NCBI GenBank assembly: GCA_965217585.1
Contig: OZ244561.1
Span: forward strand, 2,944,001-3,008,000
Reading direction: 5' to 3'
Source: Candidatus Latescibacterota bacterium
GTDB lineage: Bacteria > Latescibacterota > UBA2968 > UBA8231
DNA length: 64,000 nucleotides
The notes beneath the pieces were generated by a model, which made no database searches, was not told the DNA's origin, and saw only the letters and a list, made by a program, of their open reading frames with translations. The translations under genes and the position numbers were made by a program. Below, in pieces: positions 13,855 to 63,430 of this stretch (the first letter of the stretch is position 1; each line of letters starts with the position of its first letter).

Positions 13855-14180
13855 GCAGGTCCTCCCCTCTCCCTTGTGACATATAACTTAGATTATTCTT
13901 GGCCTGTCTCCAAGCAGATCTCCTTGAGGTGGGCACGGCGCGCTCCGCGGCCAGGGCGCTTGACAAAGCGCCTTTTTGGCGGGTATCTAGGGCGCTGTCA
14001 ATGGATGGAAACCCACAAATCCCTGGAAATCGGCCGCCCTGGCCAGCCGAATCCACGGAAACGCGGACCTGTGCTGGTGTGGACGGTGGCGCGGGATTTG
14101 TTTGAGGGACACGAAATGGTCCGGGAGCGGGCGGCTAGCCGCGAATGGAGCGATCAGTAACACCTACTTGAGGAGGAACC

Positions 14181-15065: not shown

Positions 15066-15097
15066 CTTGAGAAGCCGACACAAGGATGAGGCAGCCC

Positions 15098-15865: not shown

Positions 15866-15883
15866 AGGTCTTTGGGTTCGCTT

Positions 15884-16660: not shown

Positions 16661-16730
16661 ACGCCAATTTCCCGTAAACAGTGGGCCTAGGAAGGTGGAC
16701 GATGACGCCGCGGTACGCAACTCCGGGACT

Positions 16731-46824: not shown

Positions 46825-46948
46825 GGGCATCCGCGACGGCCTCTCCAACGAGGTGGTGGACAACCCGGTCGAAATGGTGGGACGCGGCGATCTGCTGTTG
46901 TGCGTGCAGCGGCAGAGCGCGTCCGGGCAGATCGAGCCGCTGAATTAG
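46825..46948 (+). pseudogene. Second copy of the thiN 3' end
   Basis: GIRDGLSNEVVDNPVE..GRGDLLLCVQR..SGQIEPLN* matches 45543-45669 with small indels. Confidence 0.85.
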
Positions 46949-47607
46949 TCGCTGTCCCAAGCCAGCGATAGCTGAATCCCAACCTGCCCGGTCCCCAATT
47001 CCAAGCGCGGCGCGATCTCCACTCCCTGCTCCTGCTTTTCGTCGCCCAACGCGAGCAACTGCCACCCAGCGAGGGCAAAGGCCGCCGCAGTCATCCAGCT
47101 CATCTGGCTTTGGGTGTCGCGGCTGTTGGCGCGGTCCAAAAAGCGCTCGGCTTCTTGCGGCGTGCTGGCCTTTTGGTAGCGCCGATAAGCGTCGTCGCCC
47201 TGCTGGCGAAAGTCCCAGCTTTTGACGAGCAGTATCGCGCTCCCGCTGCAAAGGGCCCAGCCCCAAGCGCGGCGCGACGTCATCCAGCCACGATCTGCGC
47301 CCCTTACCGACCATGCCACCGCCCCTAAACCCATCGCCCCCATCACCACCGCCCGCGTGTCGAATCGTCGGCGCTCGTCGTAGAAGATCTGCGCGTCGCT
47401 GCTGGACTCTGTCCGCTCGTAGCGCTCGTCGGCCCGGTTGGCTTCCCGCCGCGCCTGATAGGCTTCGCTGAGCAGCCAGCCGCCGGCACCCAGCGCGATA
47501 TAGCTGGCTACTTTGCGCGAGAGGCGCGGACCATCCGCTCGCGCCTCTCCGAGCGACGCCAGCGTCAGGATGCAGGCCAGTGTTAGAATGCTCCGTCTGT
47601 TGTTCAC
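46945..47607 (-). CDS. Secreted/membrane hypothetical protein with two internal repeats
   Basis: Signal peptide and two hydrophobic-helix / ..Y..Y..A / hydrophobic-helix units; GTG overlaps the TolC stop. Confidence 0.7.
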   Translation of the reverse strand: MNNRRSILTLACILTLASLGEARADGPRLSRKVASYIALGAGGWLLSEAYQARREANRADERYERTESSSDAQIFYDERRRFDTRAVVMGAMGLGAVAWSVRGADRGWMTSRRAWGWALCSGSAILLVKSWDFRQQGDDAYRRYQKASTPQEAERFLDRANSRDTQSQMSWMTAAAFALAGWQLLALGDEKQEQGVEIAPRLELGTGQVGIQLSLAWDSD

Positions 47608-48983
47608 CGCAGGTCTCCACGCCCTCTGGCGGCGACGGGTTTCCCCACCGCTTGGTCGAGCTGGGCTAGCTGGATGTGGTAGTTGAAAATGGCCTGGACT
47701 AAGTCGTTGCGCGCCGCAAAAAGGCTCGCTTGCGCTTGGAGCCGCTCTAGCTGCGTTCCGGTGGACAAAGCATAGCGCTCCTGCGCCAGCTTGTAGCTTT
47801 CCTCGGCAGCGCTGACCGCGATCTGGTTGGCCTCAATGCTGCGCCGATATAGCTCGATATTGAGGAAGGCTCTTTTAATATCCAGTGCCACCTGCCGCTT
47901 AGCTTGGTCGAAGTCTTCCATGCGCTGGCGGTAGTTCAGCTTTTGCGACTTGATGGAATTCTGGGTGCTCAAGCGGTTGAATAACGGCAGCCCCAGGCTC
48001 ACGCTGAACGAGTAGCCGTAGTTTTTCAAAAAGAGATCTTCCGGCCCCGCAAACGTCTCGTCGGCCCGCAGTCGCCAGTTGTAGCCGGTGCTCATGCTCA
48101 CGGTCGGGTGCAGCAACTCGTAGCGGGTCCCGCGCAGGTCCTCCTCGGCTTGCAGCAATAAAAACTCCTGCGACCGCAAGTCCGGGCGGTGCTCCAGCGC
48201 CAAGGCCAAGGCTTCCTCGTAGCTCAGCGCGAGCGGTACCATCGCAAATTCCTCCTCGACCGGCACAATCGGTTCGTAGGTCCGCAAGCCCATGGCAAAG
48301 GCCAAGTCGGCACCAGTCACCGCGACGCTGTTTTCGCGGTCGATTAGGTTCGCCCGTGCGCTGGCCAACGCGGCCCGCTCCGTCAGCACATCCGACAGGG
48401 GCACCGAGCGGACCTCGAAGAGCGTCTCGGCCCGGCGCAGGCTCTCCTCTGAGACCCGCACCTGCTCGGTCTGTACCTTCATCAGTTCAATAGCCTGCAA
48501 TAAGCTGAAGTATCCCTGCTTGACCTCAAAGACTACTTGCTGCTGGCTCGTACTCAGGTCCATCTCGGCCGCCTTGTGCCCCAGTTTGCTCGACGCTAGG
48601 GCGGTCCAGTTGCCGCGATTGTACAGGTTCATACTGAAGCCGGTACCCAGCGACTGCGAGCCGCTGGAGGTGCTCTCGCCGAGGGTAGAGGTGACCTCGC
48701 CGGTGGCTGGATCGACAAAGGATCCCTCGCGCGGCCCGGAGACGCTGCGCGACATCCCGTAGGAGGCGCTGATCGATGGTAGAAAGGCATTGCGAGCGTT
48801 CCCGATTTGGATCGCCGCGGCTTCGATATTGGAGCGGCCCTGGATGACCGCGGCGCTCTGCTCTAGGGCGATGGCGATGCAGTCGTCCATGCTCAAGCGG
48901 AGCGCCGCTGGCTCTGCTGCGCCGCTGGGGCGCGTCAGGACCCCCACCACCAGCCAGCAGAAAACGGTGTGTTTACTTTTCAC
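47604..48983 (-). CDS. TolC-family outer membrane factor
   Basis: LSMDDCIAIAL, FLPSIS, ALEHRPDL, LPLFN and QLDQAVG motifs; GTG at 48983 overlaps the upstream stop. Confidence 0.9.
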   Translation of the reverse strand: MKSKHTVFCWLVVGVLTRPSGAAEPAALRLSMDDCIAIALEQSAAVIQGRSNIEAAAIQIGNARNAFLPSISASYGMSRSVSGPREGSFVDPATGEVTSTLGESTSSGSQSLGTGFSMNLYNRGNWTALASSKLGHKAAEMDLSTSQQQVVFEVKQGYFSLLQAIELMKVQTEQVRVSEESLRRAETLFEVRSVPLSDVLTERAALASARANLIDRENSVAVTGADLAFAMGLRTYEPIVPVEEEFAMVPLALSYEEALALALEHRPDLRSQEFLLLQAEEDLRGTRYELLHPTVSMSTGYNWRLRADETFAGPEDLFLKNYGYSFSVSLGLPLFNRLSTQNSIKSQKLNYRQRMEDFDQAKRQVALDIKRAFLNIELYRRSIEANQIAVSAAEESYKLAQERYALSTGTQLERLQAQASLFAARNDLVQAIFNYHIQLAQLDQAVGKPVAARGRGDLR

Positions 48984-49699
48984 GAGAGCAGCCTTTCTCG
49001 CTGCGCCATCTGCCGCAGCCCCGAAAAGAGCAAGAGCGCACCGCCGAGCACCAGCGTCGCGCGGTTGAGCGCGACCATCTCGGCCCACACCGCATCGTCT
49101 AGGCCCAGCGGCAGGCTAAAGGGATTTAAGAAGAGAAAGTAAGCGGTCTCCGCCAGCGACTCGGCGCTCAGCAATACCGCGACCAGTACTCCCAGCGAAA
49201 GCATCCCGGCCGTATTGCTGCTCTTGCAGAGCACCGAAAAGAAGAAGGTCAGATTGGCGATCAGAAACGCCGGTGCGAACGCATTGAGTCCGCCCAGCGC
49301 GAACGGAAATTCGGCGAAGAGGAAATAGGCCGCCGCACTCATGCCCAGCAGGGTCGCCGCCAATAGCAGGTAAACGGCCACCATCCGCAGCGCCCAGATC
49401 CCGTAGTGCGAGGTGGAAGTGCTAAAGAGCGCCTCCAGCGTCCGGCGGTCGCGCTCGCCGGCCACCAGATCCATCGCTAGGTAAATCGCCAAGACCGCGC
49501 CGGGGATCTCCACCAGCACGTAGGGGGCCTGCCCGGCGCTGAACCCCTCGTCCGGCCGGAACACCGCCAGTGCGTAGAGCACTCCGTAGTATGTGGCGAT
49601 ACCCAAAACCATGAGCAGCAGCTTGCGGTGAAAGACGATCCGCGCACTGAGCCAGCACTGGGCGACTAAGCTGGCAAACAGGGTGGTCCAAGTCAGCAC
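48980..49699 (-). CDS. ABC-2 type permease
   Basis: About six TM helices; LVAGERDRRTLEALFS motif; GTG at 49699 overlaps the upstream stop. Confidence 0.8.
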   Translation of the reverse strand: MLTWTTLFASLVAQCWLSARIVFHRKLLLMVLGIATYYGVLYALAVFRPDEGFSAGQAPYVLVEIPGAVLAIYLAMDLVAGERDRRTLEALFSTSTSHYGIWALRMVAVYLLLAATLLGMSAAAYFLFAEFPFALGGLNAFAPAFLIANLTFFFSVLCKSSNTAGMLSLGVLVAVLLSAESLAETAYFLFLNPFSLPLGLDDAVWAEMVALNRATLVLGGALLLFSGLRQMAQRERLLS

Positions 49700-52600
49700 G
49701 AGGGCACGTTCTCCCGTCTCAACACATAGATGTAGGCGTCCTCCAGCGTCGGCTCGACGGGCACGGCCGCCAGCCCCGGCACGGCGTCCGCAGCCAGAAA
49801 CCGCACGCGAATGCCGGCGGGTGCGCGCAAGTGCGAGATCACGTTGACCTGCTCGCCGATCCGGGATAGCTCCTCTTCGGCGACGACCGCCTCCCACGCA
49901 TGGCCTTGCGCCAGATCGCGCATGGCCTGCGGCGTGCCCTCGTAGAGGATGCGGCCGGCATTGAGCACTGCGAGGCGGTTGCAGCTACCGGAAATATCCT
50001 CGACGATGTGGGTCGAGAAAAGGACGATCCGCTCCTGACTGATCCGCGCCAACAGGTTGCGGAAGCGAATCCGCTCCACCGGATCTAGGCCCGCGGTCGG
50101 CTCGTCAACGACGATGATCTGCGGCAGATGCAGCAGGGTCTGCGCGATCCCCACGCGCTGCTTCATGCCGCCGGAAAACGAGCCGATCAGGTCGTCTTGC
50201 CGCCCGTCGAGATTGACCTGTTCGAGGCTGGCACCGACCCGGGCGCGGCGCAGGGCCGGGTCGCGGAATCCCTCCAGCAGGGCGCGATACTCTAGATACT
50301 GATAGGCCGTCAGGTGCTCGTAGAGGCCGAAGTGCTGGGGCAAATAGCCGATCACCCCCTGCACTGGGCCGCGGCGGGTGACATTGACGCCGTCAAAGGC
50401 CACCGATCCCGAGCTTGGCTCCAGCACTTGCGATATGATCCGCATCAGCGTCGTCTTGCCGGCCCCGTTGGGGCCGAGCAGGCCGAACATGCCGCGCCCG
50501 ATCTCCAAGTTGACCCCATAGAGGGCTTGGTATTGCGGCCTTTCCACGCCGATCAGGGGCAGGGCCGCCGCCCCGCGATACGCCCTGCGCACCAGCCACG
50601 CCAGCCGACCTGCCAGCGCCGCCGGATCCACCTCGCCGCGGCGCACCCGGTCGGCCAACAGACGCGCCCCCTGATAGCCCAGCCACACCGCCAGCGAGGC
50701 GACCGTCAGCGAAGGCAGTGCCAAGCGTTGATGTACATAGCCAACCAATAGCAGCGGCACCGCCCATTGCGCCAGCGCGTGCGCCCCCGCGCCCAGACCA
50801 AGCAAAGCCCCCTGCCGCAGCACGTGGGCCACCAAGCCCCACGTCGCCAGCGAGAGCAGGTAGAGCCAGAGCGCGTCCGCAAAGTAGGTGTGTAGAAAGC
50901 CGAGGAGCACCAACAGCGGCAGCTTCCAGCTCAAGCCGTCCTTGATCGCTTTGCGATCTACCGGGTCAATACCTTGAGTCCGCAGTCTTGAGTCGCGGCG
51001 GTCGAAGCGCGTCCACTCCCGGCGGAAGCGCCCGGGGGCACCGTAGATCTTGGTCAGGGTTTGCAGGCGGATCGAATGCACCGCCGGCACCTCGTGCCGC
51101 GCCGCCCGGGCGCGGTAGATCCGCAGGGCAAGCGCGGCCACTCCGAGCAGCAAAAACCACAGCGGCAGCGCCAAGAGCACCGGCCAGAACAGGCTCGCGG
51201 ACTCCATATACAACGCGACCACAGCCGCCGCCGCGACCACAGTCGCCAATCCCACGCCGACGCGGCCGATCCCCCTGAGCCACGCCCGCACCTGATCCAG
51301 CCCCATATAGGCCACCGGCACGAAGATCAGCGTCGAGACCATCGACACCGCCAGCCCCCCCAAGACGGTGATGGCGAAGGGCGGCCAGACCTCGTAGTCG
51401 CCGCCGAAGTCGAGCGCCAAAGGCATCACGCCCAACAGGGTCGTCGCCGAGGTCATCAGGATCGGCCGCACCCTGGAGCGAGCGGCCGCCAGCACCGCCC
51501 GCTCGCGGCGGCAGCCTTCCCGCTCGCGGAGCGTGCCAATGGCGTCGATGAGGATAATGCCGTTGTTGACGGCAATGCCGATCAACACGATAAAGCCCAG
51601 CAGAGCCATCGGCCCCGCCTGCGAGCTTAGCCCGGTGCCCGTCAGCATCAGCGCCCAGCACGAGCCAATCGCCGCGGTCGGCAGGGTGCAAAAGATCAGC
51701 AGCGGCGAGGCGAACGATTCAAAGAGCGAGGCCAGCACCATGTAGGTCAGCACCGCCGCGATCCCCATCATCCAGTAGTAGATCGCATCCGTTGCGACCT
51801 CGGCGATCTCGATGGTGTAGTCGCCGGGCAGCACCAAGTCTTGGACCACTGCCCGCACTTGGTCCCGCGCCGCGTCGAGCAGGGGCTGCGAGTCGAGGAT
51901 TTCGTCTGTGAACTGATAGGAGACCACCACGCGCCGCGCTTGGTCGGTGCGCAGGATACTATTGCGCCCCTCGTCGGTGCGCACCTTGGCCAGCTCCGCA
52001 AGCGGCACATACTCACCCGTACTGGTCAGCACCGGAATGGCCCCAACCCCGGCGCGCCCGGGCCCATCGGCCTCTGGGTCTGCGGTCGGCCGCACCTCGA
52101 TGGGGATCTCGCTGCCGTCGGCCTTGAGGAAATCCGTCTGTGCTGCGAAGCCTTCTGGATTGGCGTTGGCTATCGCGCTCAGGACGGTGTTGACGCGCAG
52201 GTCGTGGTCGAAAAGCGCCAGCGGACGGGGAATCACCTGGATCTCGGGGCCGCTGCGCTGGAGGTCGGGCCGCACGCTGTTGGCGTCGATTTCCTCCAAC
52301 TCTTCGAGCCGATAGGACAAATCGTCGGCGATCATCTGCAACACCGCGAAGTCGTACCCCTTGATCAGCGCCGTCTCTGAGGTGGCCCCCGCCTGCAAGT
52401 TGAAACCCCCGGTCCCCCCGGTCCCCCCGGTCCCCCCCCCGCGTCCGCCACCCCGTCCCCTGCCGCCGCCGAAACTGCTAGCCTGCGGTTCGTAGCCGAT
52501 CAGGGCACCCTGAATTTCCTGCAACTCGCCGTCGAGCTGGTCCTTCAATTCCTCGGCCGACACCCGCTCGGGCCGCTCGTCGCGGTCGAGGAGCATCACC

Positions 52601-54396
52601 GTGACGCTGCCCTGCCCCTCCTGGACGCTGGTCGTAAACCGCTCAATGCCCGGCAGTACTTGCACCGCGTCCTCAATCTGTCGCATCACCTCGTCTGTCG
52701 CATCGAGGGTCGCGCCGTCGGAGAGACTCGCGTACACCGAAAACCGAGTCTCCGCGGCGATGACTTCCTGTTGCAGCAGGAAAAAGAACGCGGCCACCAA
52801 CGTCGCCAGCAGCACCAGGAACACGCCGCAAGCCACTGCGCCCCGATGGCGCAAACTGGCCTTGAGGAACAGCGTGTACCTCCCCATTAGCCTTCCCGTG
52901 CCCAAAGGTGCCGATGCCTGACGCTCGAGCATCCGCGCCGCCAACGCGGGTACCAGCGACAGGGCCACCAGCAGCGAGGCCAGCAGCGGGAAGGTGATCG
53001 CCAGCGCCAACTCGCGCAGAATGTCCTGGAAGTCGCTCTGGATAAAGACTACCGGCAAAAAGACCAGTGCCGTTGTCGCCGTCGCCGCGATCACTGCCTT
53101 GCTCACTTCCTCCGTGCCGTCGCGCGCCGCCTCTACGGGCGATTTGCCCCGCTCGAAGTGCTTGAAGATGCTCTCCATCACCACGATGCTGTTGTCGGTC
53201 AGCATCCCCATCGCCAGTGCCAGCCCGCAGAGCGAGAGCACGTTGAGCGTTAGATCCGAGGCGTACATCAAGTTGAACGTCGCCAGCAGCGAAGCCGGAA
53301 TCGCCAGTAGCAGGATGGCCACAAAGTGCGCATTGCGCAGAAAGAGGAACAGCACCGCCAACCCCAACACCAGCCCGACCAACGCCGCCTGTTTCAGGGT
53401 GTCGAGCGAGTCCTCCATCAGCGCGGCTTGGTTGTTGGTGACGATCAGCGACACACCCTCGGGCGCGAAGTCGCGGTTGAGCTGGGCGATCGCCGTGGCC
53501 ACTGCATCGGCGACCGCGATCAGGTTGGCCTCGTCCTCTTTCTGGATCAGGATCCCCACCGCCGACTGGCCGTTGACCCGGCTCAAGTCCGTGCGCTGCT
53601 GCAACCCGTAACCCACCTCGGCCACATCCCCCAAGCGCAGCGGGATCGACGCGTCGATGAGGGTCTCGTCAATCTGCCGCAAGTCGCCAAACTGCCCCTG
53701 AAAGCTGACCGGAAAGACTTGGCTGCCGTCGTACACCGCGCCGAGATAGACCCGGGGCTGGTTGGCGTCGGCGAGCGCGTTGCGCAGATCGGCCATCGTC
53801 AACTGGTAGGCTTGCAGGCGCTCCGGCTCGGCGACGATCTCCACCGCGCTTTGCCGACCGCCCAATACCTGGGCGCTGACCACCCCTTCGACCGCGGCCA
53901 GCGCGGGGGCGATATGTTCCTCGGTGTAGTCCCTGAGCCAGTTGAGGTCCGCCTCTGCTGCCAGGACCTGCAATTCCATCACCGTCGCGCTCAGATCGTT
54001 CTCGTCGAAGCGCTGCACCGCGATTTGGGTCCGGGCGGGAAAACTTGGTTGCAGGCGGTCCATCCGGCTCTGCACCTGCAAGAGCGCGAATTTCATATCC
54101 GTGCCCGGCTCGTAGGATATCCGCACATTGCCCCGGTTGAGCGAGGCGGTAGAAGTCATTTCCACCACGCCTTCGAGCTGACTTATTTCCTCCTCGACCG
54201 GCATCACCAACTCGCGCTCGACCTGTTCGGGTGCCATGCCCTGCTGCGCGATCGCGACGAAGATCTCGGGGTACACCACCTCGGGCATCAGCTCCACGGG
54301 CAGGCGGTCGAGCGAGATCAGCCCCAACAGCGAGACCGCGGAGAAAAACATCGCCGTCGTCACTGGGCGGCGGATGGAGAAGGCCGACAAGCTCAC
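49693..54396 (-). CDS. RND (AcrB-family) permease fused to a C-terminal ABC ATPase
   Basis: Start VSLSAFSIRRPV at 54396 (GTGA overlap). RND motifs GMLTDNSIVVMES and RVRPILMTS, then GPNGAGKTT, FSGGMKQR, VVDEPT and STH in the same frame. Confidence 0.9.
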   Translation of the reverse strand: MSLSAFSIRRPVTTAMFFSAVSLLGLISLDRLPVELMPEVVYPEIFVAIAQQGMAPEQVERELVMPVEEEISQLEGVVEMTSTASLNRGNVRISYEPGTDMKFALLQVQSRMDRLQPSFPARTQIAVQRFDENDLSATVMELQVLAAEADLNWLRDYTEEHIAPALAAVEGVVSAQVLGGRQSAVEIVAEPERLQAYQLTMADLRNALADANQPRVYLGAVYDGSQVFPVSFQGQFGDLRQIDETLIDASIPLRLGDVAEVGYGLQQRTDLSRVNGQSAVGILIQKEDEANLIAVADAVATAIAQLNRDFAPEGVSLIVTNNQAALMEDSLDTLKQAALVGLVLGLAVLFLFLRNAHFVAILLLAIPASLLATFNLMYASDLTLNVLSLCGLALAMGMLTDNSIVVMESIFKHFERGKSPVEAARDGTEEVSKAVIAATATTALVFLPVVFIQSDFQDILRELALAITFPLLASLLVALSLVPALAARMLERQASAPLGTGRLMGRYTLFLKASLRHRGAVACGVFLVLLATLVAAFFFLLQQEVIAAETRFSVYASLSDGATLDATDEVMRQIEDAVQVLPGIERFTTSVQEGQGSVTVMLLDRDERPERVSAEELKDQLDGELQEIQGALIGYEPQASSFGGGRGRGGGRGGGTGGTGGTGGFNLQAGATSETALIKGYDFAVLQMIADDLSYRLEELEEIDANSVRPDLQRSGPEIQVIPRPLALFDHDLRVNTVLSAIANANPEGFAAQTDFLKADGSEIPIEVRPTADPEADGPGRAGVGAIPVLTSTGEYVPLAELAKVRTDEGRNSILRTDQARRVVVSYQFTDEILDSQPLLDAARDQVRAVVQDLVLPGDYTIEIAEVATDAIYYWMMGIAAVLTYMVLASLFESFASPLLIFCTLPTAAIGSCWALMLTGTGLSSQAGPMALLGFIVLIGIAVNNGIILIDAIGTLREREGCRRERAVLAAARSRVRPILMTSATTLLGVMPLALDFGGDYEVWPPFAITVLGGLAVSMVSTLIFVPVAYMGLDQVRAWLRGIGRVGVGLATVVAAAAVVALYMESASLFWPVLLALPLWFLLLGVAALALRIYRARAARHEVPAVHSIRLQTLTKIYGAPGRFRREWTRFDRRDSRLRTQGIDPVDRKAIKDGLSWKLPLLVLLGFLHTYFADALWLYLLSLATWGLVAHVLRQGALLGLGAGAHALAQWAVPLLLVGYVHQRLALPSLTVASLAVWLGYQGARLLADRVRRGEVDPAALAGRLAWLVRRAYRGAAALPLIGVERPQYQALYGVNLEIGRGMFGLLGPNGAGKTTLMRIISQVLEPSSGSVAFDGVNVTRRGPVQGVIGYLPQHFGLYEHLTAYQYLEYRALLEGFRDPALRRARVGASLEQVNLDGRQDDLIGSFSGGMKQRVGIAQTLLHLPQIIVVDEPTAGLDPVERIRFRNLLARISQERIVLFSTHIVEDISGSCNRLAVLNAGRILYEGTPQAMRDLAQGHAWEAVVAEEELSRIGEQVNVISHLRAPAGIRVRFLAADAVPGLAAVPVEPTLEDAYIYVLRRENVPSC

Positions 54397-57300
54397 CGCA
54401 GCCGCTCCACCGTCTCGTAGGCCACGGGAATGACCACCAGCGTCATCAGCGTCGCGGAAATAAGTCCGCCGATCACCGCAATCGCCATCGGCGCCCGCAA
54501 GGCCGCCCCTTCGCCCACCCCGATTGCCATCGGCGCGAGCGCCAAAATCGTGGTTGCCGTCGTCATCAGGATCGGCCGCAGCCGGTCCTGCGCGCCCTGC
54601 AGCACGGCCGCGCGCACCGTCGGCAACTGCGCCCGTAGCTGGTTGATGCGATCGACCAATACGATAGAGTCGTTGACCGCGATCCCGCCCAGCATGATGA
54701 TGCCGATATAGGCCATTGCGCTCAGCGGCTCGCCCAGCCCCCAGAAGGCCCACACCACGCCGACGCCAGCCAGCGGCACGGTCAGCATCACGGTAAAGGG
54801 GTGCAGCAGCGACTCAAAAAGCGAGGCCATCACCATGTACACCAGCACCACCGAGAGCAGCAGCGCGAACTGCAAGTCGGCAAAGGACTCCTGTCGCTCG
54901 CGCTCCTCGCCGCCGATGGCGATCCGATAACCACGGGGCAGGGCCATGCTATTGACGACCTGCTCGACCTGCCCGATGGCCTCGCCCAACACCGCGCCTT
55001 CGACCAGATAACCCGCCACCCGCCCGACCCGGCGCTGGTCCTCGCGCAAAATCTCGCGCGGCCCTTCGACAAGTATGGGATCCGACAAATCGCCCAGAGC
55101 CAGAATCGCCCCATCGGGCGCATCAATCCGCAACTGCGGCAGCTCGCGCAAGTCGAAGCGCGCAAAACCGACGCGGATGTCGCGCGAGCGTTGGTCTTTG
55201 GACAACTCGCCGATTACCTCGCCCGACAGCCGGCGCTCCAGCGCCTGCACGATGGTCGCGACGGTCAGCCCGCTGGCGACGACCGCGTCCTCGCGCAGCC
55301 GCAGGTCGATCTCAGGTTGGCCGCCTTGGAAGTTCGAAGTGACGTTGTACACGCTCGGCAGCTCCTCCAAGCGGGCGGCGAGATCGGCGCACAGGCGGCG
55401 CAACACTTCCACCTCGTCGCCAATAATCTCCACTTGGACCGGGGCCGTCCGCTCGCCCAGCACTCCTTCGAGCGCGGTCTCGTGTAGCTGGTATTGCACG
55501 TCTAGTTCGGGGATTTGCGCCAATTGCGCGTCAACGACCTCGACCAGTTGCGGCAGGTTGCGACTGGTCTGCTGGGCCAGCGCGACCGACAGCGTGGCGC
55601 GGTTGGGTCCGGTAGGGTCGCCGATGTTGGCCAGCCGCGCCGGGTCCACGCCCGCCCGGGCGTACACTCCGGCCACATCGTCGCCGCCTACCTCGCCGAT
55701 GATCTCCCCCACCCGCTTGGCCACCCGATCGGTCAGCTCCAGCCGCGACCCTTGCGCCAGTGACAACTCCACGTGGAAAAGCCCTTGGTCTTCGCGCGGG
55801 ATAAACTCGGTGGGGATTGCGCGGGCGACGTAGGCCGTGCCCGCGCCCGTTGCGGCCACCAGCAACAAAACCACTCCCTTGTGGTCGAGCACCGCGTTGA
55901 GCAAAGCGCGGAAGCGCAACCAGCGCTGCTCGGTTGTCGCCCCGCCGCGCCCGCGCAAAAAACGCGAGGTTAGCATCGGCACGGTCATCATCGCCACCGC
56001 CAGTGACGAGACGAGCGAAAAAGCCACGGTCCAGGCTTGGTCCTTAAACAGTTCGCTGGTCAGCCCTTGCAGGTAAACGATCGGCAGGAAAACCGACACG
56101 GTCGTCAGCGTCGAGGCCGTAATCGCCACCCCGACCTCGCTGGCTCCCTTTGTCGAAGCTTGGCGCGCGTCTTCGCCCCGCTCGAGGTGGCGGTAGATAT
56201 TCTCAATGACCACGATCGCGTTATCGACCAGCATCCCCGCCCCTAGCGCCAAGCCGCCGAGGGTCATGATATTGAGCGTCAGATCCTCGAAATACATCAG
56301 GGTAAAGGTCGCTAGAATTGAAATCGGAATCGCCAGGCCGATCACCAAAGTCGCCGTCCACGAGCGCAAGAAAAACAGCAATACCCCCACCGCCAACACC
56401 GCCCCGTGCAGCGCCGCCTCTTTGACCTCGGCTACGGCCTCCTCGATAAAGCGCGCTTGGTTTTCAACCACTGCAAAGCGCAACTCGGGCAAGTCTTGGT
56501 CGAGCTCGCCGATGGATTCGAGCACCCGGTTGATGACCTGTACCGTATTGCTACCGGCCTCCTTGTAGAGCGCCAAGCCGATGCACTCGACTCCGTCGAG
56601 CCGCACGATCGTCTCCCGTTCCGCGTACTCCAGCGCCACCCGTCCCACTTCGCGCACGTAAACCGGCACCTGCAACCCCGCCTCGACGCCTGCCCCCTGC
56701 CGCGCCCCGACGATCACATTGCGCACGTCCGCTAGGTCTTTGAGCCGCCCCAGCCCCTTGACCTGGTACGATTGCTGCGCCTCGCGCAAGGTCCCCCCGG
56801 ACACGTCCTCATTGGCCGAGGTAATCGCCGCGATGACTTGGTCGGCGTCCTGCCCAAAGGCTTCGAGCAGGTACGGATCCAACGTCACCCGGATTTCTTT
56901 TTCCGCATCTCCTTCGATGTCTGCCGAGGCCACCCCGGCGAGTGCTTCCAGCTTGGGCTTGACCACGGTCTCGACCGCGCCCAACAGCTCGTCGAGGTCG
57001 GCCAACTCCGTCGCCGAGACCGCGATCCGCATCACCGGCAGCGCCTGCGGGTCCTCCTGAATGACATCGAGCGTTTCAATATCCTCGTCGGTGGCGTACA
57101 CCCCCATCTTCTTCTGCACGTCGATCAGGGCAAAATCCATATCCGCTTCCCAATCGAACTCGGCCACCACCACGGACTGCCCTGAGCGGGTGATCGAATA
57201 GACCCGAGCGACTCCGCTGATCGTGCTGATGTCGCGCTCCAGCCGCCGCGTATATTGCTCTTCCACCTCCTGCGGCGCCTTGCCGGGCACCTGCAAGTCA

Positions 57301-57440
57301 ACTGTGATGACCGGCGTGTGCATGTTGGGCAGCAGGTCGGTCCCCAATTTGCTTAGGGAGATCGCCCCCAACAGCGCCACCGCGAGGGTCAGCATCAACA
57401 CGGTGACGGGATAGCGGGTGGAAAACTCAGGTAGCGACAT
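54393..57440 (-). CDS. RND (AcrB-family) permease
   Basis: MSLPEFSTRYPV start at 57440; GMLVDNAIVVIENI, MASLFES and RLRPILMTT motifs. Confidence 0.93.
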   Translation of the reverse strand: MSLPEFSTRYPVTVLMLTLAVALLGAISLSKLGTDLLPNMHTPVITVDLQVPGKAPQEVEEQYTRRLERDISTISGVARVYSITRSGQSVVVAEFDWEADMDFALIDVQKKMGVYATDEDIETLDVIQEDPQALPVMRIAVSATELADLDELLGAVETVVKPKLEALAGVASADIEGDAEKEIRVTLDPYLLEAFGQDADQVIAAITSANEDVSGGTLREAQQSYQVKGLGRLKDLADVRNVIVGARQGAGVEAGLQVPVYVREVGRVALEYAERETIVRLDGVECIGLALYKEAGSNTVQVINRVLESIGELDQDLPELRFAVVENQARFIEEAVAEVKEAALHGAVLAVGVLLFFLRSWTATLVIGLAIPISILATFTLMYFEDLTLNIMTLGGLALGAGMLVDNAIVVIENIYRHLERGEDARQASTKGASEVGVAITASTLTTVSVFLPIVYLQGLTSELFKDQAWTVAFSLVSSLAVAMMTVPMLTSRFLRGRGGATTEQRWLRFRALLNAVLDHKGVVLLLVAATGAGTAYVARAIPTEFIPREDQGLFHVELSLAQGSRLELTDRVAKRVGEIIGEVGGDDVAGVYARAGVDPARLANIGDPTGPNRATLSVALAQQTSRNLPQLVEVVDAQLAQIPELDVQYQLHETALEGVLGERTAPVQVEIIGDEVEVLRRLCADLAARLEELPSVYNVTSNFQGGQPEIDLRLREDAVVASGLTVATIVQALERRLSGEVIGELSKDQRSRDIRVGFARFDLRELPQLRIDAPDGAILALGDLSDPILVEGPREILREDQRRVGRVAGYLVEGAVLGEAIGQVEQVVNSMALPRGYRIAIGGEERERQESFADLQFALLLSVVLVYMVMASLFESLLHPFTVMLTVPLAGVGVVWAFWGLGEPLSAMAYIGIIMLGGIAVNDSIVLVDRINQLRAQLPTVRAAVLQGAQDRLRPILMTTATTILALAPMAIGVGEGAALRAPMAIAVIGGLISATLMTLVVIPVAYETVERLR

Positions 57441-57450
57441 AATGCGAGTA

Positions 57451-58548
57451 CTATCTCCCCGGCCCGCCCCGACCACCTGCCCCCCTAGCCTCTCCGGTCC
57501 CCGTTACACTGACCCGCGTCCGCGACCGCAGGGTCTCGTAGTTGCTCGTAATCAGCCGCTCCCCCTCCTCCACGCCGCGCAGCACCTCCACGAACGTTTC
57601 GTCCTCTAGCCCGGTCTCAATTTCCCGCATCTGCGCCCGTGCGCTTTCTTCGACGAATACGACCTCGCGATTCCTCCTCACTAGCACCAACTCGCGCGGT
57701 ACCAGCACCACGTCGGCGTGCGACTCGACCACGATCTCGGCCTTGACGAACATCCCTGGCCGCAGCAAGTGCTCGGGGTTGTCTATCGCCGCCACCGCGC
57801 GAAAGGTCCGCGTCGCGGCATCCACCACCGGGTCAACCGCGACGATGCGGCCGGCGAACACCTCGTCCGGGTAGGAGTAATCGACCGCCCGCACGGGCTG
57901 ATCCAGCGCGATGTGGCGGATTTGCGAGTTGGGAATCTGCAAGTCGAGCAGCACCGCGCTGTAATCGACGATGCGGCAGATCTGGATGTTCGCCTCGACC
58001 AGCGTCTGCTCGCTGGCGTCGGTGAACTCGCTGAGCACCCCGGAGATCGGGGCGGTAATTGCGGTCTTGCCGATCTGGACCAAGGCGTCGTCGTAGTCCG
58101 ACTGCGCGTCGGCCAAATCCTTGCGCGCCGCTTCGACATCGAACTGGGTCACCAAGCCGCGCTCGACTAGGACTTCTTGTTCGGCGAGGGTTTGGCGCGC
58201 GTTCTGCACGGCCAGCTTGCGCGCCTCCAGCCGGGCACCGACCACCAGTTCCTCGTTGTCGAGGCGGGCGAGCACTTGGCCCTGCTGCACGGCCATCCCC
58301 TCGGTCGGCTTGCGCCCGTCGCCTAGTTGGACCAGCGACAGGAACCCCCGCGTCTCGGTGACCACCACTGCTTCCTGCACTGACCGCAGGGTGCCGGTGG
58401 AGGTAACGACGGACTCGATGGTCCCCAACCCCACCGGCTGCACGGTGACCGGGACCGTCAAATCGGCCGTCTGCTGGACGGTCTCGCTTTCGCAGCCGAT
58501 TAGCAACAGGAGCGCCCATGCCGAGGCGCATAGGATTGTATATCGCAT
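57451..58548 (-). CDS. RND periplasmic adaptor (MFP) lipoprotein
   Basis: Lipobox LIGC; ITAPISG, VDAATRT and LRPGMF motifs. Confidence 0.92.
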   Translation of the reverse strand: MRYTILCASAWALLLLIGCESETVQQTADLTVPVTVQPVGLGTIESVVTSTGTLRSVQEAVVVTETRGFLSLVQLGDGRKPTEGMAVQQGQVLARLDNEELVVGARLEARKLAVQNARQTLAEQEVLVERGLVTQFDVEAARKDLADAQSDYDDALVQIGKTAITAPISGVLSEFTDASEQTLVEANIQICRIVDYSAVLLDLQIPNSQIRHIALDQPVRAVDYSYPDEVFAGRIVAVDPVVDAATRTFRAVAAIDNPEHLLRPGMFVKAEIVVESHADVVLVPRELVLVRRNREVVFVEESARAQMREIETGLEDETFVEVLRGVEEGERLITSNYETLRSRTRVSVTGTGEARGAGGRGGPGR

Positions 58549-58635
58549 ATTTACCTCAGAGCAGGGCAAGCACAAGGGCTGCCCCGACAAGATTTGTTGG
58601 TATAGATGCTTTAGGATGTGCCCTACGGATATGTC

Positions 58636-61600
58636 TCAAAATACCTTGTTCAACCAACGGGTAATAGCGCTCGGTTGCTGCCGCCCGCCACCGCGACCGC
58701 CGCGACCGCCGCGACCGCCGCGACCGCGCCAATTGCCGAAAGACCCCACATCTTCCTCGTAGGCGGCCTCTGGGTTGTCTGGGTCAATCCAGCGCCAGCG
58801 CACTGCATCGGCGTAGAGTTGGCCGCTGGCTTGGTCGGACAGCTCGACCCGCGCCCTTTCGCCTTCGGCAAAGTGAAATCGCCCCAGCAAATTCCAGCCG
58901 CCTTGCAGCGTCTCGCTCTTGAGCGCGAGAGTATCTACCACACCCCCATGCGCGACCGCGAGCGAAAACGATTCGGCCAAGCTCAACCCAAAGCGCCGAC
59001 TAAACCGCGACGGCACGAAATAGTACGCCACGTCGTAGAAGCCCGCCTTGGGCAGCGTGGTCGTCCACACCGCCGGCTGCGCCCCATCGCCGGGCGGCTT
59101 CCAGCGGAAATTGGTCTCGTAGCGGCCGAAGGCAAGAGGCAGCTCCTGCACCTGCCAGTTGTCGCCTCTAAGCCCGGGGCGCAGGTAGCGTTGCACCCGG
59201 CGGATCGGCATGGAAAAGCCCTCGTCGTCGTTGTCGACTACGATCTCCGAGAAAAAGTTTTCCTCGTCTTCTACGACTCGCACGTAGGATTTGGGATAGC
59301 CGGCAAAGACCTGCTCGGGGATGCTCAAGGCGGCGACAATCGGCCGCTGGTTTTTGGCCAAAAACGGCTCGACCATCACCCGGAACGGCCGTGCAAAAAG
59401 CACCATGGACACCTCGACCTCCTGCCCGCCTTCAATGGCAATCGCCTTTGCGGCTTGGTCCTCGCGCCCAAGGGCCTGCACCTCGACAAAGCCGCGGCCC
59501 GGCTCGCCGTTTTTGATCCGCACGATCACCTGGTACACCACTGCGCCCCAGCCGTCGTCCATCTTCTTGGCCGTCGCCCGGGTCAGGGTATAGCCCGGCA
59601 CGTGGGTTCCGTAGATCCAGTCGTGGACTAGCTGCTGCACGTCGATCTTCTGGCGGCCAACTTCCCCGTCGGGGACGACCGCATCCTCAAAATCGGCAAA
59701 GGAGACCTGCTGGTACTTGTTGTTCTCGTCAAAGGTGCCGACCGCTTCGATAAATTGGTCGGCCCCCAGCACCGACTTGACGACCCGGAAGATGGACAGG
59801 CTCTTGGCTTTGAGGATCGACCGGTAGAGGGCGGGTTCGGCGGCTTTGTCCATTTCCGCCAGCGAGTGCTGCTGCATCTCTACCACCAGCGTGTCCCAAG
59901 CCGGGCCGGTGTTAGCGGCGGGCCGGGGGGCACCGCCGGGGCCGCCGCCCCGAGAGCGCATCATGCTGCTGATCATCCGCGCCATTCCGCCGCTCATCCG
60001 GCCGCCCCAGCGGCTCGAAAACATCGCCATCCGCAAGTCGGCGCTGACGTCTTCCTGCATGTAGAGCGGCAACCCGCGCGCGACTAGGTCGGCGTGCTCG
60101 CCGCCGAAGCCGCGGTCAAAGGACCATAGCTGCACCAGTGGGCTGCGAAACAGGCCGCTACGCCCTCCTTCGGGACTCAAGAAATCCTGGAAGAGTGCCC
60201 CGACCAGCACGTCTTTTTTGGCTTGCGCCTCGTCTTGGTCGCCGCGCCGCCGCGCCATCCGCGCATCAAAGTCGCGCTGGAAGCGGTGGCCCATCAACAC
60301 GTCCTCCTCAATCATCAGCACCCCTGGCTGCACTAGGCCACCGCGCTCCTCCCAGCCCTCGTAGTACCACTGCACCAAGAAGGGCACCTCCACCAGCGAG
60401 AGCCTCGGGTACGAGTATTTCAGCCCCGTCTCCTGCTCCATCGCGTCGAAAAGCTGGTCGATGGTCTCTACTACTTTGTCGGGAGCGTCGGCGAAAAAGC
60501 GCACCGGGCGCAGGTGGGCCGGATGGACATAGAGGGCGAACTCGACCTCGCGGACCGTGGTCTTATAGACCTCGTAGCGGCCGGCGTGTAGAGAAAAAAG
60601 CGGCACCGGATAATCCACCTGCCACTGCGTGCGGACGCGCCCGCCTTGGTCCTCTTGGGCTATGGGTCGCCCCTGCGTGACCACCTCCAGCCCAGCGGGC
60701 ACCGACACCGCGATCTCTGCCGTGGCAAACGAAGGCGGCGGCGGCACTTGCGGGTGGTAGGCTACCCCGGCGATGGGATACCAGCCGCTGCGTGGGGGCA
60801 AAAAGACCGATTCGCCGCGGATCCAGGCCGTCAGGTCGCCCTTGATAAACGGCCACTTGTTCTTGTGCAGCCGCACCTCGTCGCGCAGCAGATCAAAGCC
60901 TTGGCGGTCGATGTCGCCGTCGTAGGCCAGCGTCAAGGTCTGCTCAGCCCCGGCGGCCAGCGGCGCGGCGACCCGGATCACGGCCGCACCCCGCTTCCAC
61001 CCCAACTCGTTGCCGGCCGCATCCTGCACCGACCGCAGCGTCAAGCCGGGGTTGAGCGCAAAAATCAGCGTATCCAGCGCGCCGTCGTGGTCGTTGTACA
61101 ATCGCAACTGGGCCTTGGCCGCCAGCGGCGCATCCTCGCCAGCCAACGCGACCTCCAGCCGGTAGTGCGCCACCTGCGGTACCGGCGCGTCTGCGTAGCG
61201 ATATTGCTCGGCGAGCAGGCGCTGGCGATAGGCTTGGTTGGCTTGGTCTTGGGCGTCGATGTGCTGATACAGCCCCACCGCCGCCAACAGCCCCACCCCG
61301 GCCATGCCCCGGCCGACCCAAGCCCATCCCAGCGACTGGGACAGGCGCGGATAGCGCTCTATCGACAGGCCAAAAAAGAACAGCCCGAGGGCTAAGTAAA
61401 AAAGCCGCTGGTCGATCACCCGCGATATATCGCCCAAGCCGATCATGTCCGAGTAGAAAAGCGGGGCGAAAAAGGCCCCAAAGTCCCACCAGCCGCCGTA
61501 GCCCTCGCCGAGGTAAAACAACACCGCGAGCGCGTAGGCCATAGTCAGCAGGGCGACAGCCGTCTGGTGCCGCAACACAGCGCCTAAAAAGAAGGTCAGG

Positions 61601-62094
61601 GCCGACATGTACAGCAGCGCCGGCAGGGTCATCACCAGCAGGTACAGCAGATAGGGCCGCAGCGTGAACGGCGCGTCGAGCAGGCTGATCTTGGCCGCTT
61701 GGACGGCCACCGTCAAAACCAGCACCGCCAAGCTCAAGGTCAGCAGTGCCCCGAGGACCCCGAGGTACTTGCCGATGACCAGTTCGGCGGTCGCTATCGG
61801 CCGCCCGGCGATCACCTCGTGGACCCCGGCCCGCTCGTCGGCGGCGCGGAAGTCGCCGACGATAAAGGCGATCACGACCGCCTGTACATAGCTATAGACG
61901 TAAAAGGGGACAAACGCCCCCATGCCCAGCGCCGAGCTGAACTCGATCCCCCGCGCTTCGAGCACGGCTAAGCCGACGCCAATCAGCAGCGGCAGCGCGA
62001 CCCCGATGCTGCCGAGGATGCGGAAGCGGGTGGTCCGCAAGAGCAGCATCCGCTCGTAGCGGGCCACGCCGAGGATGTTGTGGACGGCGCGCAT
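58636..62094 (-). CDS. ABC-2 permease fused to an M1-aminopeptidase-like domain (no HExxH) and a golvesin/Xly CBD-like C-terminal domain
   Basis: N-terminal TMs (ARYE, VIGKYLG); LNPGL, WYP and YPRLSLVEVP; C-terminal VVDNDD...GWNLLGRF...ADAVRW. Confidence 0.8.
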   Translation of the reverse strand: MRAVHNILGVARYERMLLLRTTRFRILGSIGVALPLLIGVGLAVLEARGIEFSSALGMGAFVPFYVYSYVQAVVIAFIVGDFRAADERAGVHEVIAGRPIATAELVIGKYLGVLGALLTLSLAVLVLTVAVQAAKISLLDAPFTLRPYLLYLLVMTLPALLYMSALTFFLGAVLRHQTAVALLTMAYALAVLFYLGEGYGGWWDFGAFFAPLFYSDMIGLGDISRVIDQRLFYLALGLFFFGLSIERYPRLSQSLGWAWVGRGMAGVGLLAAVGLYQHIDAQDQANQAYRQRLLAEQYRYADAPVPQVAHYRLEVALAGEDAPLAAKAQLRLYNDHDGALDTLIFALNPGLTLRSVQDAAGNELGWKRGAAVIRVAAPLAAGAEQTLTLAYDGDIDRQGFDLLRDEVRLHKNKWPFIKGDLTAWIRGESVFLPPRSGWYPIAGVAYHPQVPPPPSFATAEIAVSVPAGLEVVTQGRPIAQEDQGGRVRTQWQVDYPVPLFSLHAGRYEVYKTTVREVEFALYVHPAHLRPVRFFADAPDKVVETIDQLFDAMEQETGLKYSYPRLSLVEVPFLVQWYYEGWEERGGLVQPGVLMIEEDVLMGHRFQRDFDARMARRRGDQDEAQAKKDVLVGALFQDFLSPEGGRSGLFRSPLVQLWSFDRGFGGEHADLVARGLPLYMQEDVSADLRMAMFSSRWGGRMSGGMARMISSMMRSRGGGPGGAPRPAANTGPAWDTLVVEMQQHSLAEMDKAAEPALYRSILKAKSLSIFRVVKSVLGADQFIEAVGTFDENNKYQQVSFADFEDAVVPDGEVGRQKIDVQQLVHDWIYGTHVPGYTLTRATAKKMDDGWGAVVYQVIVRIKNGEPGRGFVEVQALGREDQAAKAIAIEGGQEVEVSMVLFARPFRVMVEPFLAKNQRPIVAALSIPEQVFAGYPKSYVRVVEDEENFFSEIVVDNDDEGFSMPIRRVQRYLRPGLRGDNWQVQELPLAFGRYETNFRWKPPGDGAQPAVWTTTLPKAGFYDVAYYFVPSRFSRRFGLSLAESFSLAVAHGGVVDTLALKSETLQGGWNLLGRFHFAEGERARVELSDQASGQLYADAVRWRWIDPDNPEAAYEEDVGSFGNWRGRGGRGGRGGRGGGRQQPSAITRWLNKVF

Positions 62095-62099
62095 GGCGT

Positions 62100-62972
62100 T
62101 TAGGCCGATCCCATAAAATAGATATAGGCGTCTTCGAGGCTGGGCGCGGTCGGCACGGCACCCGGCGGCGGTGCTGCGTCGCCGACGATCCTGAGCGCCA
62201 TGCCGACGCCGTCGGCGCTGATGTTGACCACGCTAAAGCGGCTGGCGATGGCCTCAAACCCGTCGTCGTCGGTCTGCAAAAGCCAGGTTTTGCCCTCGGC
62301 CTTGGCGACGAAGTCCGCGGGTGCGCCGTGGAAGCGCAGCCGTCCCTGATGCAATACGGCCAAGTCCTCGCAGGTGCTCGAAATATCGCCGACGATGTGG
62401 GTCGAGATGAGAATGGTGCGGCTGGCGCTCAGCCTCCCCAAAATGGCCCGGAAGCGGATCCGCTCCTCTGGGTCAAGCCCGACGGTCGGCTCATCGACGA
62501 TGATAAACTCAGGGTCGGCCAAAATCACCTGCGCGATGCCAAGCCGCCGCCGCATCCCCCCCGAAAAGGTGCCGGTCTTGCGCTCGCGCACCTCGTAGAG
62601 ACCCACGTCCTCCAAAGCTTGGGCGACCCTTTCGCGGCGCTGCCGCTGGCCGTGCAACCCGCCGAGCCGCCCCATGTAGTCGAGGAATTCCCAAGCCGAA
62701 AGCTGCGGGTACGCGCCGAAGTGCTGCGGCAAGTAGCCGAGCCGCCGCCGCACCTCGGCGCGGTCCTTTTGCAAGTCCCAGCCGTCGATCTCCACCGCGC
62801 CCGCGCTGGGCACCATCTGGGTGGAGAGAATTTTGATCAGCGTGGTCTTACCCGCGCCGTTGGGTCCTAAGAGACCAAACGTCCCGTGGCGGATCTCCAA
62901 GCTCAGGTCAGCAAGCGCCGGAACCTCGTTGCGGCCATAGGTCTTGCTCAGGTTTTGGATGCGTATTCTCAA
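62100..62972 (-). CDS. ABC transporter ATP-binding protein
   Basis: GPNGAGKTT, FSGGMRRR, IVDEPT, STH and PSLEDAY motifs; TTG overlaps the upstream stop. Confidence 0.93.
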   Translation of the reverse strand: MRIRIQNLSKTYGRNEVPALADLSLEIRHGTFGLLGPNGAGKTTLIKILSTQMVPSAGAVEIDGWDLQKDRAEVRRRLGYLPQHFGAYPQLSAWEFLDYMGRLGGLHGQRQRRERVAQALEDVGLYEVRERKTGTFSGGMRRRLGIAQVILADPEFIIVDEPTVGLDPEERIRFRAILGRLSASRTILISTHIVGDISSTCEDLAVLHQGRLRFHGAPADFVAKAEGKTWLLQTDDDGFEAIASRFSVVNISADGVGMALRIVGDAAPPPGAVPTAPSLEDAYIYFMGSA

Positions 62973-63430
62973 AAACCACCGCCACCACCGCCACCACCGC
63001 CGCGGGGACCGCCGCGGGGACCGCCGCGGCCGCCGAAGTTCCTGCGGCGCTCTTGCTGCTCTTGCATATGCGCTTTCAGTGCCTCGACCTGCTCTTTCTC
63101 CAAGACCTCAGTAAGCACCCCCATGATCTTGGTTTGTATCTCCATTTGCATCTCGCGCATGGTCTCGCGCATGGACCGGAAATCGACCTCGCCGCTGAAC
63201 ATCTTCGCCATTGCCTGCTGTCGCTTTGCGTAGAGCGGCTTGAGGCTGGTCCGCAGTGCGAGTACCTGCTCGTCGGTCACGTTGAATTTCTCCTCGAACG
63301 CCAGCAGACCGAAAATCTGGTCCGGCGACATACCGCCGCGACCACCGCCGCCCGGCTGCGCTTCAAGCGGCAAAACGCCCAACAGACCAATGCCCAAGGC
63401 CCAAAAGGCCGACTTGCGAATGCGTGTCAT
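62969..63430 (-). CDS. Spy/CpxP-like periplasmic helical protein with Gly/Arg-rich ends
   Basis: Start MTRIRKS at 63430, signal peptide; VTDEQ and VLEKEQ (LTxxQ-like), Met-rich helices and a GGRGGPRGG tail. Confidence 0.7.
   Translation of the reverse strand: MTRIRKSAFWALGIGLLGVLPLEAQPGGGGRGGMSPDQIFGLLAFEEKFNVTDEQVLALRTSLKPLYAKRQQAMAKMFSGEVDFRSMRETMREMQMEIQTKIMGVLTEVLEKEQVEALKAHMQEQQERRRNFGGRGGPRGGPRGGGGGGGGGF

Follow-up and report, generated by a model that had tools for sequence, protein, structure and literature searches.

In Gram-negative bacteria, RND and ABC pumps are usually presented as two alternative engines for efflux and secretion, each with an energy source of its own, and the locus described here raises the question of whether the two can be built as one machine. 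The analysed stretch, hereafter the window, comprises 64,000 nucleotides (nt) of a Candidatus Latescibacterota genome (contig OZ244561.1, positions 2,944,001 to 3,008,000). It contains a 16.5-kb operon of nine almost gapless open reading frames (ORFs), all on the minus strand (46945-63430), in which a resistance-nodulation-division (RND) permease is fused to an ATP-binding cassette (ABC) ATPase. A first-pass annotation had listed nine minus-strand genes in the same order, and all the ORFs were found. With moderate confidence, we favour the view that they encode one envelope-spanning export machine, an ABC-2 exporter covalently tied to an RND tripartite pump.

The joint between both superfamilies is carried by gene 6. 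Its start is most likely GTG 54396 (maximal ORF to 54753), which overlaps the stop codon of the preceding RND gene as GTGA and yields a protein of 1567 amino acids (aa; 49693-54396), the length proposed beforehand. Using Pfam and NCBIfam for the domain assignment of the window proteins, we found a complete RND permease (RND2, residues 1-1032, 51301..54396; ACR_tran 1.7e-188), a membrane linker of about 260 aa (residues 1033-1290, 50527..51300; delimited by an AlphaFold2 (AF2) model, alignments and a profile search) and a canonical ABC ATPase, whose nucleotide-binding domain (NBD2) extends from strand beta2 through a C-terminal beta domain at 49693..50526 (ABC_tran 1.6e-26).

A protein of this kind could be an assembly or annotation artefact, if a stop codon had been lost or the frame had shifted. 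We searched its last 568 residues, comprising transmembrane helix 12 (TM12), the linker and the ATPase, against 5.8 billion proteins. All 120 listed clusters presented both PF00873 and PF00005, with identities of 88-39% over this C-terminal part, and 108 of the 120 listed relatives were at least 1500 aa long; among their named sources are Latescibacterota, Gemmatimonadota, Acidobacteriota, KSB1 and Calditrichota. A prokaryote scan using one genome per species returned 45 loci matching through the linker. In 39 of them the frame ran uninterrupted for 1500 aa or more; the remaining six were short contigs or frameshifted. Among the carriers were the cultured Bacteroidota Marivirga sericea, M. tractuosa, Draconibacterium mangrovi, Maribellus maritimus, Parabacteroides massiliensis and Bacteroides sp. 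224, which bears out an earlier guess that homologues would occur in the FCB group. For the window itself, 50561-51473 was tiled, with zero indels, by short contigs of four runs that belong to a single study; one of these runs may be the source sample. The two checks proposed in the first-pass annotation, read support across the linker and conservation of ACR_tran plus ABC_tran proteins and their neighbourhood across phyla, both supported the fusion. Since the same fusion recurs in many independent assemblies and phyla, with unbroken frames and indel-free contigs, we reject an artefact, whose probability we consider negligible. Contig depth in the four metagenome runs showed a roughly 100-fold spike over the Walker A region (50447-50523), presumably due to conserved ABC sequence from many other organisms and not to a feature of the gene.

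The linker proved to be specific to this type of protein. When its profile was compared with 1.84 billion representatives, 160 clusters matched (122 at E<=1e-10); it occupied residues ~1025-1300 in every full-length protein and the other matches were fragments. Stand-alone genes combining linker and ATPase were sought among 8000 scored candidates of 294-937 aa, and the seven matches were all partial or split copies, though a rare free form may exist beyond these candidates. In the phylum of the window, the linker was present in 84 of 168 genomes (34 of the 52 of high quality), with a single match per genome in 82 of the 84 carriers. Distribution in the genus of the window was patchy, with seven of 31 genomes carrying the linker and cassette (the window's own counted), while nearly all genomes of two other families in the class had the cassette (29/31 and 19/22), which suggests loss or transfer. 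In an even sample of Bacteroidota, with six candidates scored per genome, it was rare (4/401, including the seed). In M. tractuosa strain ac6 (L091), RND1 was split into 485 and 558 aa and the large permease into 595 and 506 aa (8112-11283 and 14013-17343), which could represent decay or sequencing error; the RND1 frame of M. sericea is intact.

How an ATPase might be held by an RND protein was addressed with an AF2 model of fusion residues 1000-1567, built from 44 sequences (predicted local distance difference test (pLDDT) 79, predicted template modelling score (pTM) 0.60). After TM12, two extra long TM helices (TM13-14) lead to the 11-residue first strand of the NBD, beta1, which carries an invariant Lys and an invariant Tyr (alignment motif L-x-K-I-Y). 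This Tyr is presumably the A-loop residue that stacks on adenine in ABC ATPases. In the model, strand beta2 comes only after an amphipathic basic helix, four long hydrophobic helices and a second basic helix. The predicted four-helix membrane bundle therefore sits between the first and second strands of NBD2, which in the free ATPase of the operon are separated by about five residues only. Because the linker adds even numbers of TM helices (two and four) and their cytoplasmic ends are basic, the ATPase would stay in the cytoplasm and, as the bundle splits beta1 from the rest of NBD2, it would be anchored at the membrane next to the RND trimer. Foldseek searches with the linker-plus-NBD model returned matches to the NBD only, and the best score of an ESM Atlas look-up of the linker (0.81) was at noise level.

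The question then becomes whether the remaining genes belong with the fusion. Besides gene 6, the core comprises six parts. Upstream lie a free ATPase (gene 2, NBD1, 290 aa, 62100..62972; PF00005 ABC_tran 1.3e-31); the large permease Perm1 (gene 3, 1152 aa, 58636..62094; weak ABC-2 and Peptidase_M1 matches, Golvesin_C 3.8e-14); a periplasmic adaptor or membrane fusion protein (MFP; gene 4, 365 aa, 57451..58548, starting at ATG 58548 or alternatively TTG 58590; HlyD_D23 4.5e-23, TIGR01730); and a second RND permease, RND1 (gene 5, 1015 aa, 54393..57440, ATG 57440 or alternatively GTG 57476; ACR_tran 1.6e-223). Downstream are the small ABC-2-type permease Perm2 (gene 7, 239 aa, 48980..49699, maximal ORF to 49897), whose GTG 49699 overlaps the final 7 nt of the fusion gene, and a TolC-family outer-membrane factor (OMF; gene 8, 47604..48983, maximal ORF to 49088; OEP 7.5e-65), whose start again overlaps the Perm2 stop as GTGA (48983-48980). 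When the window proteins were compared with the 45 loci by tblastn, MFP-RND1-fusion synteny was seen in 39. Perm2 also matched in 39; among its six misses, three loci held an ORF of ~240 aa in its place and three ended at the locus edge. The ATPase1-Perm1-...-Perm2 cassette was found in six of the eight 20-kb regions examined, and in each of the complete cassettes studied, the RND genes came with all four ABC parts. The OMF gene was located between Perm1 and MFP in 34 of the 37 loci with enough flank; in the window it comes after Perm2 instead. Many loci that the scan had matched only through an ATPase turned out to be ATPase1 genes heading such cassettes in further lineages (Krumholzibacteria, Zixibacteria, Saprospiraceae, Fermentimonas and Sunxiuqinia), where the loci end inside RND2, ahead of the point at which a fusion would lie. 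The proposal that exactly two NBDs and two ABC-2 membrane domains are present held well, as they accompany two RND paralogues, the MFP and usually an OMF. The nine-gene unit had to be reduced to seven parts, with genes 1 and 9 being restricted to close relatives (2/7 and 1/7 other regions, respectively).

The strongest comparative argument came from an unclassified metagenome-assembled genome (MAG; G573, loci L083 and L100), in which the order is MFP, ATPase1, small ABC-2 permease, RND1, ABC-2/M1-like permease, RND2::ATPase and OMF. Its fusion (L083:6659-10975) has 1438 aa and a short linker without the extra TM hairpin or the four-helix bundle, its Perm1-like protein lacks Golvesin_C, and its small permease scored 36.2 bits with the ABC-2 Pfam model, over the cut-off. 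Here ABC and RND genes are interleaved, and the maintenance of the same seven parts in a permuted order suggests that they work as one unit. Alternatively, the locus might encode two homodimeric ABC-2 exporters, (NBD1)2(Perm1)2 and (NBD2)2(Perm2)2, merely co-encoded with an RND pump; only the NBD2/Perm2 exporter would then be tethered, for example to an RND1:RND2 trimer of 1:2 composition that contains RND2 twice. The pairwise adjacency of the window genes (2-3 and 6-7) fits such an arrangement, as does the existence of ATPase and Perm1-like pairs without flanking RND genes. In G573, however, the adjacencies are swapped, ATPase1 lying by the small permease and the Perm1-like gene by RND2::NBD, which argues against adjacent pairs acting as separate transporters. 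ATPase1 is also unlinked from Perm1 in G019 and G026, which have no adjacent ATPase1 but a 68%-identical orthologue elsewhere without a neighbouring Perm1. The constant company of the four ABC parts and the RND genes likewise speaks against independent exporters, and we regard the homodimers as unlikely. The distant orthologue lies about 0.9-1.4 Mb away (L096, L097, L101 and L102), and G027 carries both an adjacent and a distant copy.

We then considered whether the four ABC parts resemble a transporter. NBD1 is DrrA/GldA-like with a C-terminal domain of ~70 aa, and its matches to TIGR01188 and TIGR03522 were under the cut-offs. It shares 46% identity with NBD2 over 270 aa, C-terminal domain included, and in fusion-carrying genomes the ATPase1 orthologue was the best non-fusion match to an NBD2 query. 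The Walker A, Q-loop, SGG signature, Walker B-Glu and H-loop of NBD2 were invariant in 44/44 sequences (G308-T316, Q354, S408-G410, D431-E432 and H463 in alignment A2) and all catalytic motifs of the NBD1 translation were canonical; that neither site is degenerate also suits the homodimers. The NBD2 fold was closest to type V/ABC-2 class ATPases, namely TM_1403, NosF (7osf_B, 1.5e-17) and the ABCA NBDs, as determined by Foldseek. Six hydrophobic segments were predicted in each permease, and their family scores fell just or clearly under the cut-offs (ABC-2 Pfam, 18.5 vs 25 for Perm1; PF12679, 26.8-26.9 vs 27.2 bits for Perm2). A complex model of linker plus NBD2 with Perm2 gave interface scores (ipSAE) of 0.66, 0.66 and 0.64, compared to 0.00 for the best of three controls; 58 of 80 solved complexes attain this ipSAE mark, as do 2 of 110 mismatched pairs. 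Agreement between the runs was at least 81% of contacts, with a partner pLDDT of at least 74. In the predicted interface, the N-terminal helix of Perm2 (2-25) and a conserved loop (85-101) lie on the Q-loop/helical subdomain of NBD2, which corresponds to the textbook coupling interface between an NBD and a membrane domain; a few Perm2 contacts reach the TM13-14 hairpin. This docking, which would be equally expected of an NBD2/Perm2 homodimer, may partly reflect likeness to, or memory of, solved ABC-2 complexes.

Perm1 comprises an ABC-2-type membrane domain (six predicted TM segments and one long helix), an M1-like body, a beta-sandwich, Golvesin_C and an RGG tail, and was modelled with a pLDDT of 78.8 and a pTM of 0.74. 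Foldseek related its periplasmic body to the M1 aminopeptidases IRAP, ERAP1, APN and F3 (E 3.7e-20) over 650-690 aligned columns at 10-13% identity, and the Pfam Peptidase_M1 match was under the cut-off. Neither HEXXH nor GXMEN was present in the window Perm1, and HEXXH was found in one of 114 homologues, at a different site. Hence the 'M1-like' label of the first-pass annotation stands for the fold and fails for the zinc motif: with the fold present and the HEXXH(18)E zinc site and GXMEN lacking, we discarded an M1 zinc aminopeptidase, and the absence of HEXXH points to a pseudo-peptidase, presumably a binding module. The 'CBD' of that annotation does exist and corresponds to Pfam Golvesin_C, which PMC9166713 describes as a CBM6/35/36-like domain, related to carbohydrate-binding modules (CBMs). 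The Perm1 family profile also matched the C-terminus of a Paenibacillus xanthan lyase (6f2p_A, 6.7e-9). In the source databases, Perm1 homologues are named 'hypothetical' or after the NosY COG (JGI).

Such a large periplasmic domain, combining a peptide-binding fold and a CBM-like domain, could also belong to an extractor. The ABC module, similarly to LolCDE or LptB2FG, would pull a lipid-anchored or outer-leaflet molecule from the inner membrane and hand it to the RND/MFP/OMF conduit or to the periplasmic module of Perm1. RND pumps draw their substrates from the periplasm or the outer leaflet, which is in line with this idea. Against it, the NBD fold best matches type V exporters (NosF, ABCA and TM_1403), no lipoprotein or lipopolysaccharide genes were found near the operon, and no evidence separates an extractor from the exporter that we favour. 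We consider it quite improbable.

The second engine of the proposed machine is the RND pair. RND1 and RND2 scored 744.9 and 629 bits with ACR_tran (cut-off 28), covering profile positions 2-1020, and are 31% identical to each other. RND1 reached 602.7 bits with NF033617, whose cut-off is 1250. The closest solved relative of RND2 is E. coli MdtB (9lyq_B, 1e-84). Assignment of the pair as MdtB/MdtC equivalogs (NF007798 and NF007905) was rejected, with scores of 323-379 bits against cut-offs of 1584 and 1774. The adaptor is a clear RND_mfp member (TIGR01730, 176.6 vs 94.9 bits) conserved in 39/45 loci, and the OMF matched OEP in two stretches (218.7 bits) and TIGR01844 with 172 bits, the cut-off being 225. 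The AcrB-type proton relay consists of two TM4 Asp residues, a TM10 Lys and a TM11 Arg. The first TM4 Asp and the TM11 Arg were kept in all 36 RND1 and all 40 RND2 sequences. The second TM4 position was mostly Asn in both, while MdtB presents Asp-Asp. The TM10 Lys was replaced by Asn in 35/36 RND1 and 40/40 RND2, and by Ser in one RND1. The residue following the TM10 Asn was Asp in 13/36 RND1 and never acidic in RND2 (0/40). Judged from these residues, proton coupling through a relay unlike the AcrB textbook case is plausible, and its loss in RND2 is unsupported, as TM4 Asp and TM11 Arg are retained. With the NBD motifs intact as well, the use of both ATP and the proton motive force (PMF) is plausible.

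The covalent tether and the unusual membrane bundle within the NBD raise a further alternative, in which NBD2 and Perm2 transport nothing and instead act directly on RND2, controlling or powering it as an ATP-dependent gate or an assembly factor, so that the RND pump would be ATP-regulated. The distribution of the acidic residue beside the TM10 Asn (0/40 RND2 vs 13/36 RND1) would agree with it. Nevertheless, TM4 Asp and TM11 Arg are intact in RND2, NBD2 and Perm2 are predicted to meet in an interface of the canonical transport-coupling type, and the short-linker variant, which lacks the membrane bundle, still has all parts; we consider such a gate improbable. A bolder extension of the tethered exporter is that the TM13-14 hairpin and the four-helix bundle transmit ATP binding and hydrolysis in the NBD dimer mechanically to the membrane domain of RND2, so that the ABC cycle and the rotary, proton-driven cycle of the RND trimer would be allosterically locked. 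We hold this to be rather unlikely; if true, a locked ABC/RND dual-energy stroke would constitute an energisation class new to both superfamilies.

Several findings weigh against a single machine. The equivalents of AcrB D408 and K940 are absent in both RNDs, and proton coupling is therefore assumed. The membrane domain of Perm1 and Perm2 aligned in register but weakly (hhalign probability 7%, E 0.0049), and we discarded them as close paralogues. In the complex model, which tests the NBD2-Perm2 pair only and comes out the same for a heterodimer and for homodimers, no contact between the four-helix insertion and Perm2 was confident. ATPase and Perm1-like pairs without RND genes in the fetched flank (L061, L066, L085 and L087; hosts Planctomycetota, Pyrinomonadaceae and a Bacteroidia MAG) indicate that this pair probably works alone there, possibly as an ancestral two-gene ABC system. 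Finally, a hint of the cargo was sought among the neighbouring genes and none was found.

Taking both sides together, we still favour one machine with two engines, a type V-like ABC-2 exporter that would be formed by NBD1, NBD2, Perm1 and Perm2, and a heteromeric RND pump that would comprise RND1, RND2, the adaptor and the outer-membrane channel. We infer its physical assembly, the heterodimeric ABC stoichiometry, the order of steps and the cargo. First, ATP hydrolysis at the two NBDs would move an amphipathic cargo from the cytoplasm or the inner leaflet. The pseudo-aminopeptidase/CBM module of Perm1 would then hold it beside the RND porter domain, and the proton-driven RND/MFP/OMF conduit would finally drive it out through the outer membrane. 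Judging by the pseudo-aminopeptidase fold and the CBM-like domain, the cargo might be a peptide or glycoconjugate, which is a guess. A fixed set of partners that outlasts the shuffling of gene order suggests repeated selection for hard-wiring the inner- to outer-membrane steps of export.

Genes 1 and 9 delimit the operon. Gene 1 (62969..63430, ATG 63430, maximal ORF to 63799) encodes a small secreted-looking protein of 153 aa with Gly/Arg-rich tracts at both termini, and gene 9 (46945..47607) encodes a protein of 220 aa without a family match; no Pfam or NCBIfam family was found for either of them, even at E<=10. The 'Spy-like' label previously given to gene 1 was dropped, since no LTXXQ/CpxP-like match appeared at E<=10 and the best hits were noise (E 0.44 and 1.3). 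With tblastn, gene 1 was detected only in G001 and G016 and gene 9 only in G001 among eight regions; both are lineage-specific, gene 1 being an accessory. RGG-type low-complexity tracts recur in periplasm-facing parts of several operon proteins, and a sequence scan placed them in gene 1 (62969-63430), the Perm1 tail (58636-58740), the RND2 periplasmic part (a Gly/Arg-rich insertion at residues 643-664, 52405-52470) and the C-terminus of the MFP, close to 57451. Over the entire 7.32-Mb genome, a six-frame scan counted 12 such tracts, three of them within the 16.5-kb operon. At the same sites in homologues, a tract was present near residue 640 in 34/108 fusions, and in the C-terminal tail and at an internal site of 67/112 and 39/112 Perm1 homologues, respectively. 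The neighbouring genes encode oxidoreductases, a NYN protein, a GDSL lipase, a radical SAM protein, a TonB receptor and a thiamin pyrophosphokinase. A 1466-aa ORF with Calx-beta and fn3-like repeats (L099:5548-9948, minus strand) lies upstream of the operon, about 5.5-10 kb past the right end of the window, and shows no evident connection with the operon.

All modules come from known families, while their covalent RND-ABC combination appears to be new. Databases annotate the fusion protein only generically, and no description of an RND-ABC fusion, a membrane bundle within an NBD or a pseudo-M1 periplasmic domain was found in open PMC and bioRxiv, in agreement with the earlier statement that no characterised system of this architecture is known. 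Two-step cooperation of inner-membrane transporters with RND pumps is described in general terms in PMC4338810, and the covalent link would hard-wire the cooperation outlined there. That cooperation would become testable in one purifiable complex, and cultured hosts, among them Marivirga, Draconibacterium, Maribellus and Parabacteroides massiliensis, make genetics and cryo-EM feasible. Two further features stand out: an ABC ATPase whose first strand, bearing the invariant Tyr, is parted from its second by a predicted membrane bundle, and a transporter whose periplasmic domain appears to be an M1 aminopeptidase fold that has lost its catalytic function.

Among known systems, MdtABC-TolC of E. 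coli is similar in having two tandem RND paralogues, an adaptor and an outer-membrane channel, with MdtB as the nearest solved relative of RND2. In contrast, no Mdt subunit carries an ATPase and the RNDs of the window are not MdtB/MdtC orthologues, with TM4 Asp-Asn instead of Asp-Asp and Asn replacing the TM10 Lys. MacAB-TolC likewise combines an ABC ATPase, an adaptor, a TolC-family channel and a permease with a large periplasmic domain. According to PMC8277102, the ATPase of MacB is fused to its own FtsX-type permease, whereas here the permeases are of the ABC-2 type, an RND pair is added and the ATPase is fused to an RND protein and not to its own permease; none of the nine window proteins matched the FtsX or MacB_PCD Pfam models at E<=0.01. 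NosDFY resembles the ABC half, given the match of the NBD fold to NosF and the naming of Perm1 homologues after the NosY COG. In YbhGFSR of E. coli, a pair of NBDs is combined with two distinct ABC-2 permeases and an HlyD-like protein. Neither NosDFY nor YbhGFSR is known to have an RND component, a membrane insertion in the NBD or a pseudo-M1/CBM periplasmic module. With the M1 aminopeptidases (IRAP, ERAP1, APN and tricorn factor F3), Perm1 shares the multi-domain fold, and HEXXH is missing in 113/114 of its homologues. A conceptual precedent for ATP and PMF acting in series is SecDF with SecYEG-SecA, in which a proton-driven protein of the RND superfamily aids export started by an ATPase; PMC8277102 states that SecDF uses the proton force to assist SecA-driven export through SecYEG. 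The Sec components are separate proteins that use another route for their cargo, lack a conduit through the outer membrane and are not covalently joined.

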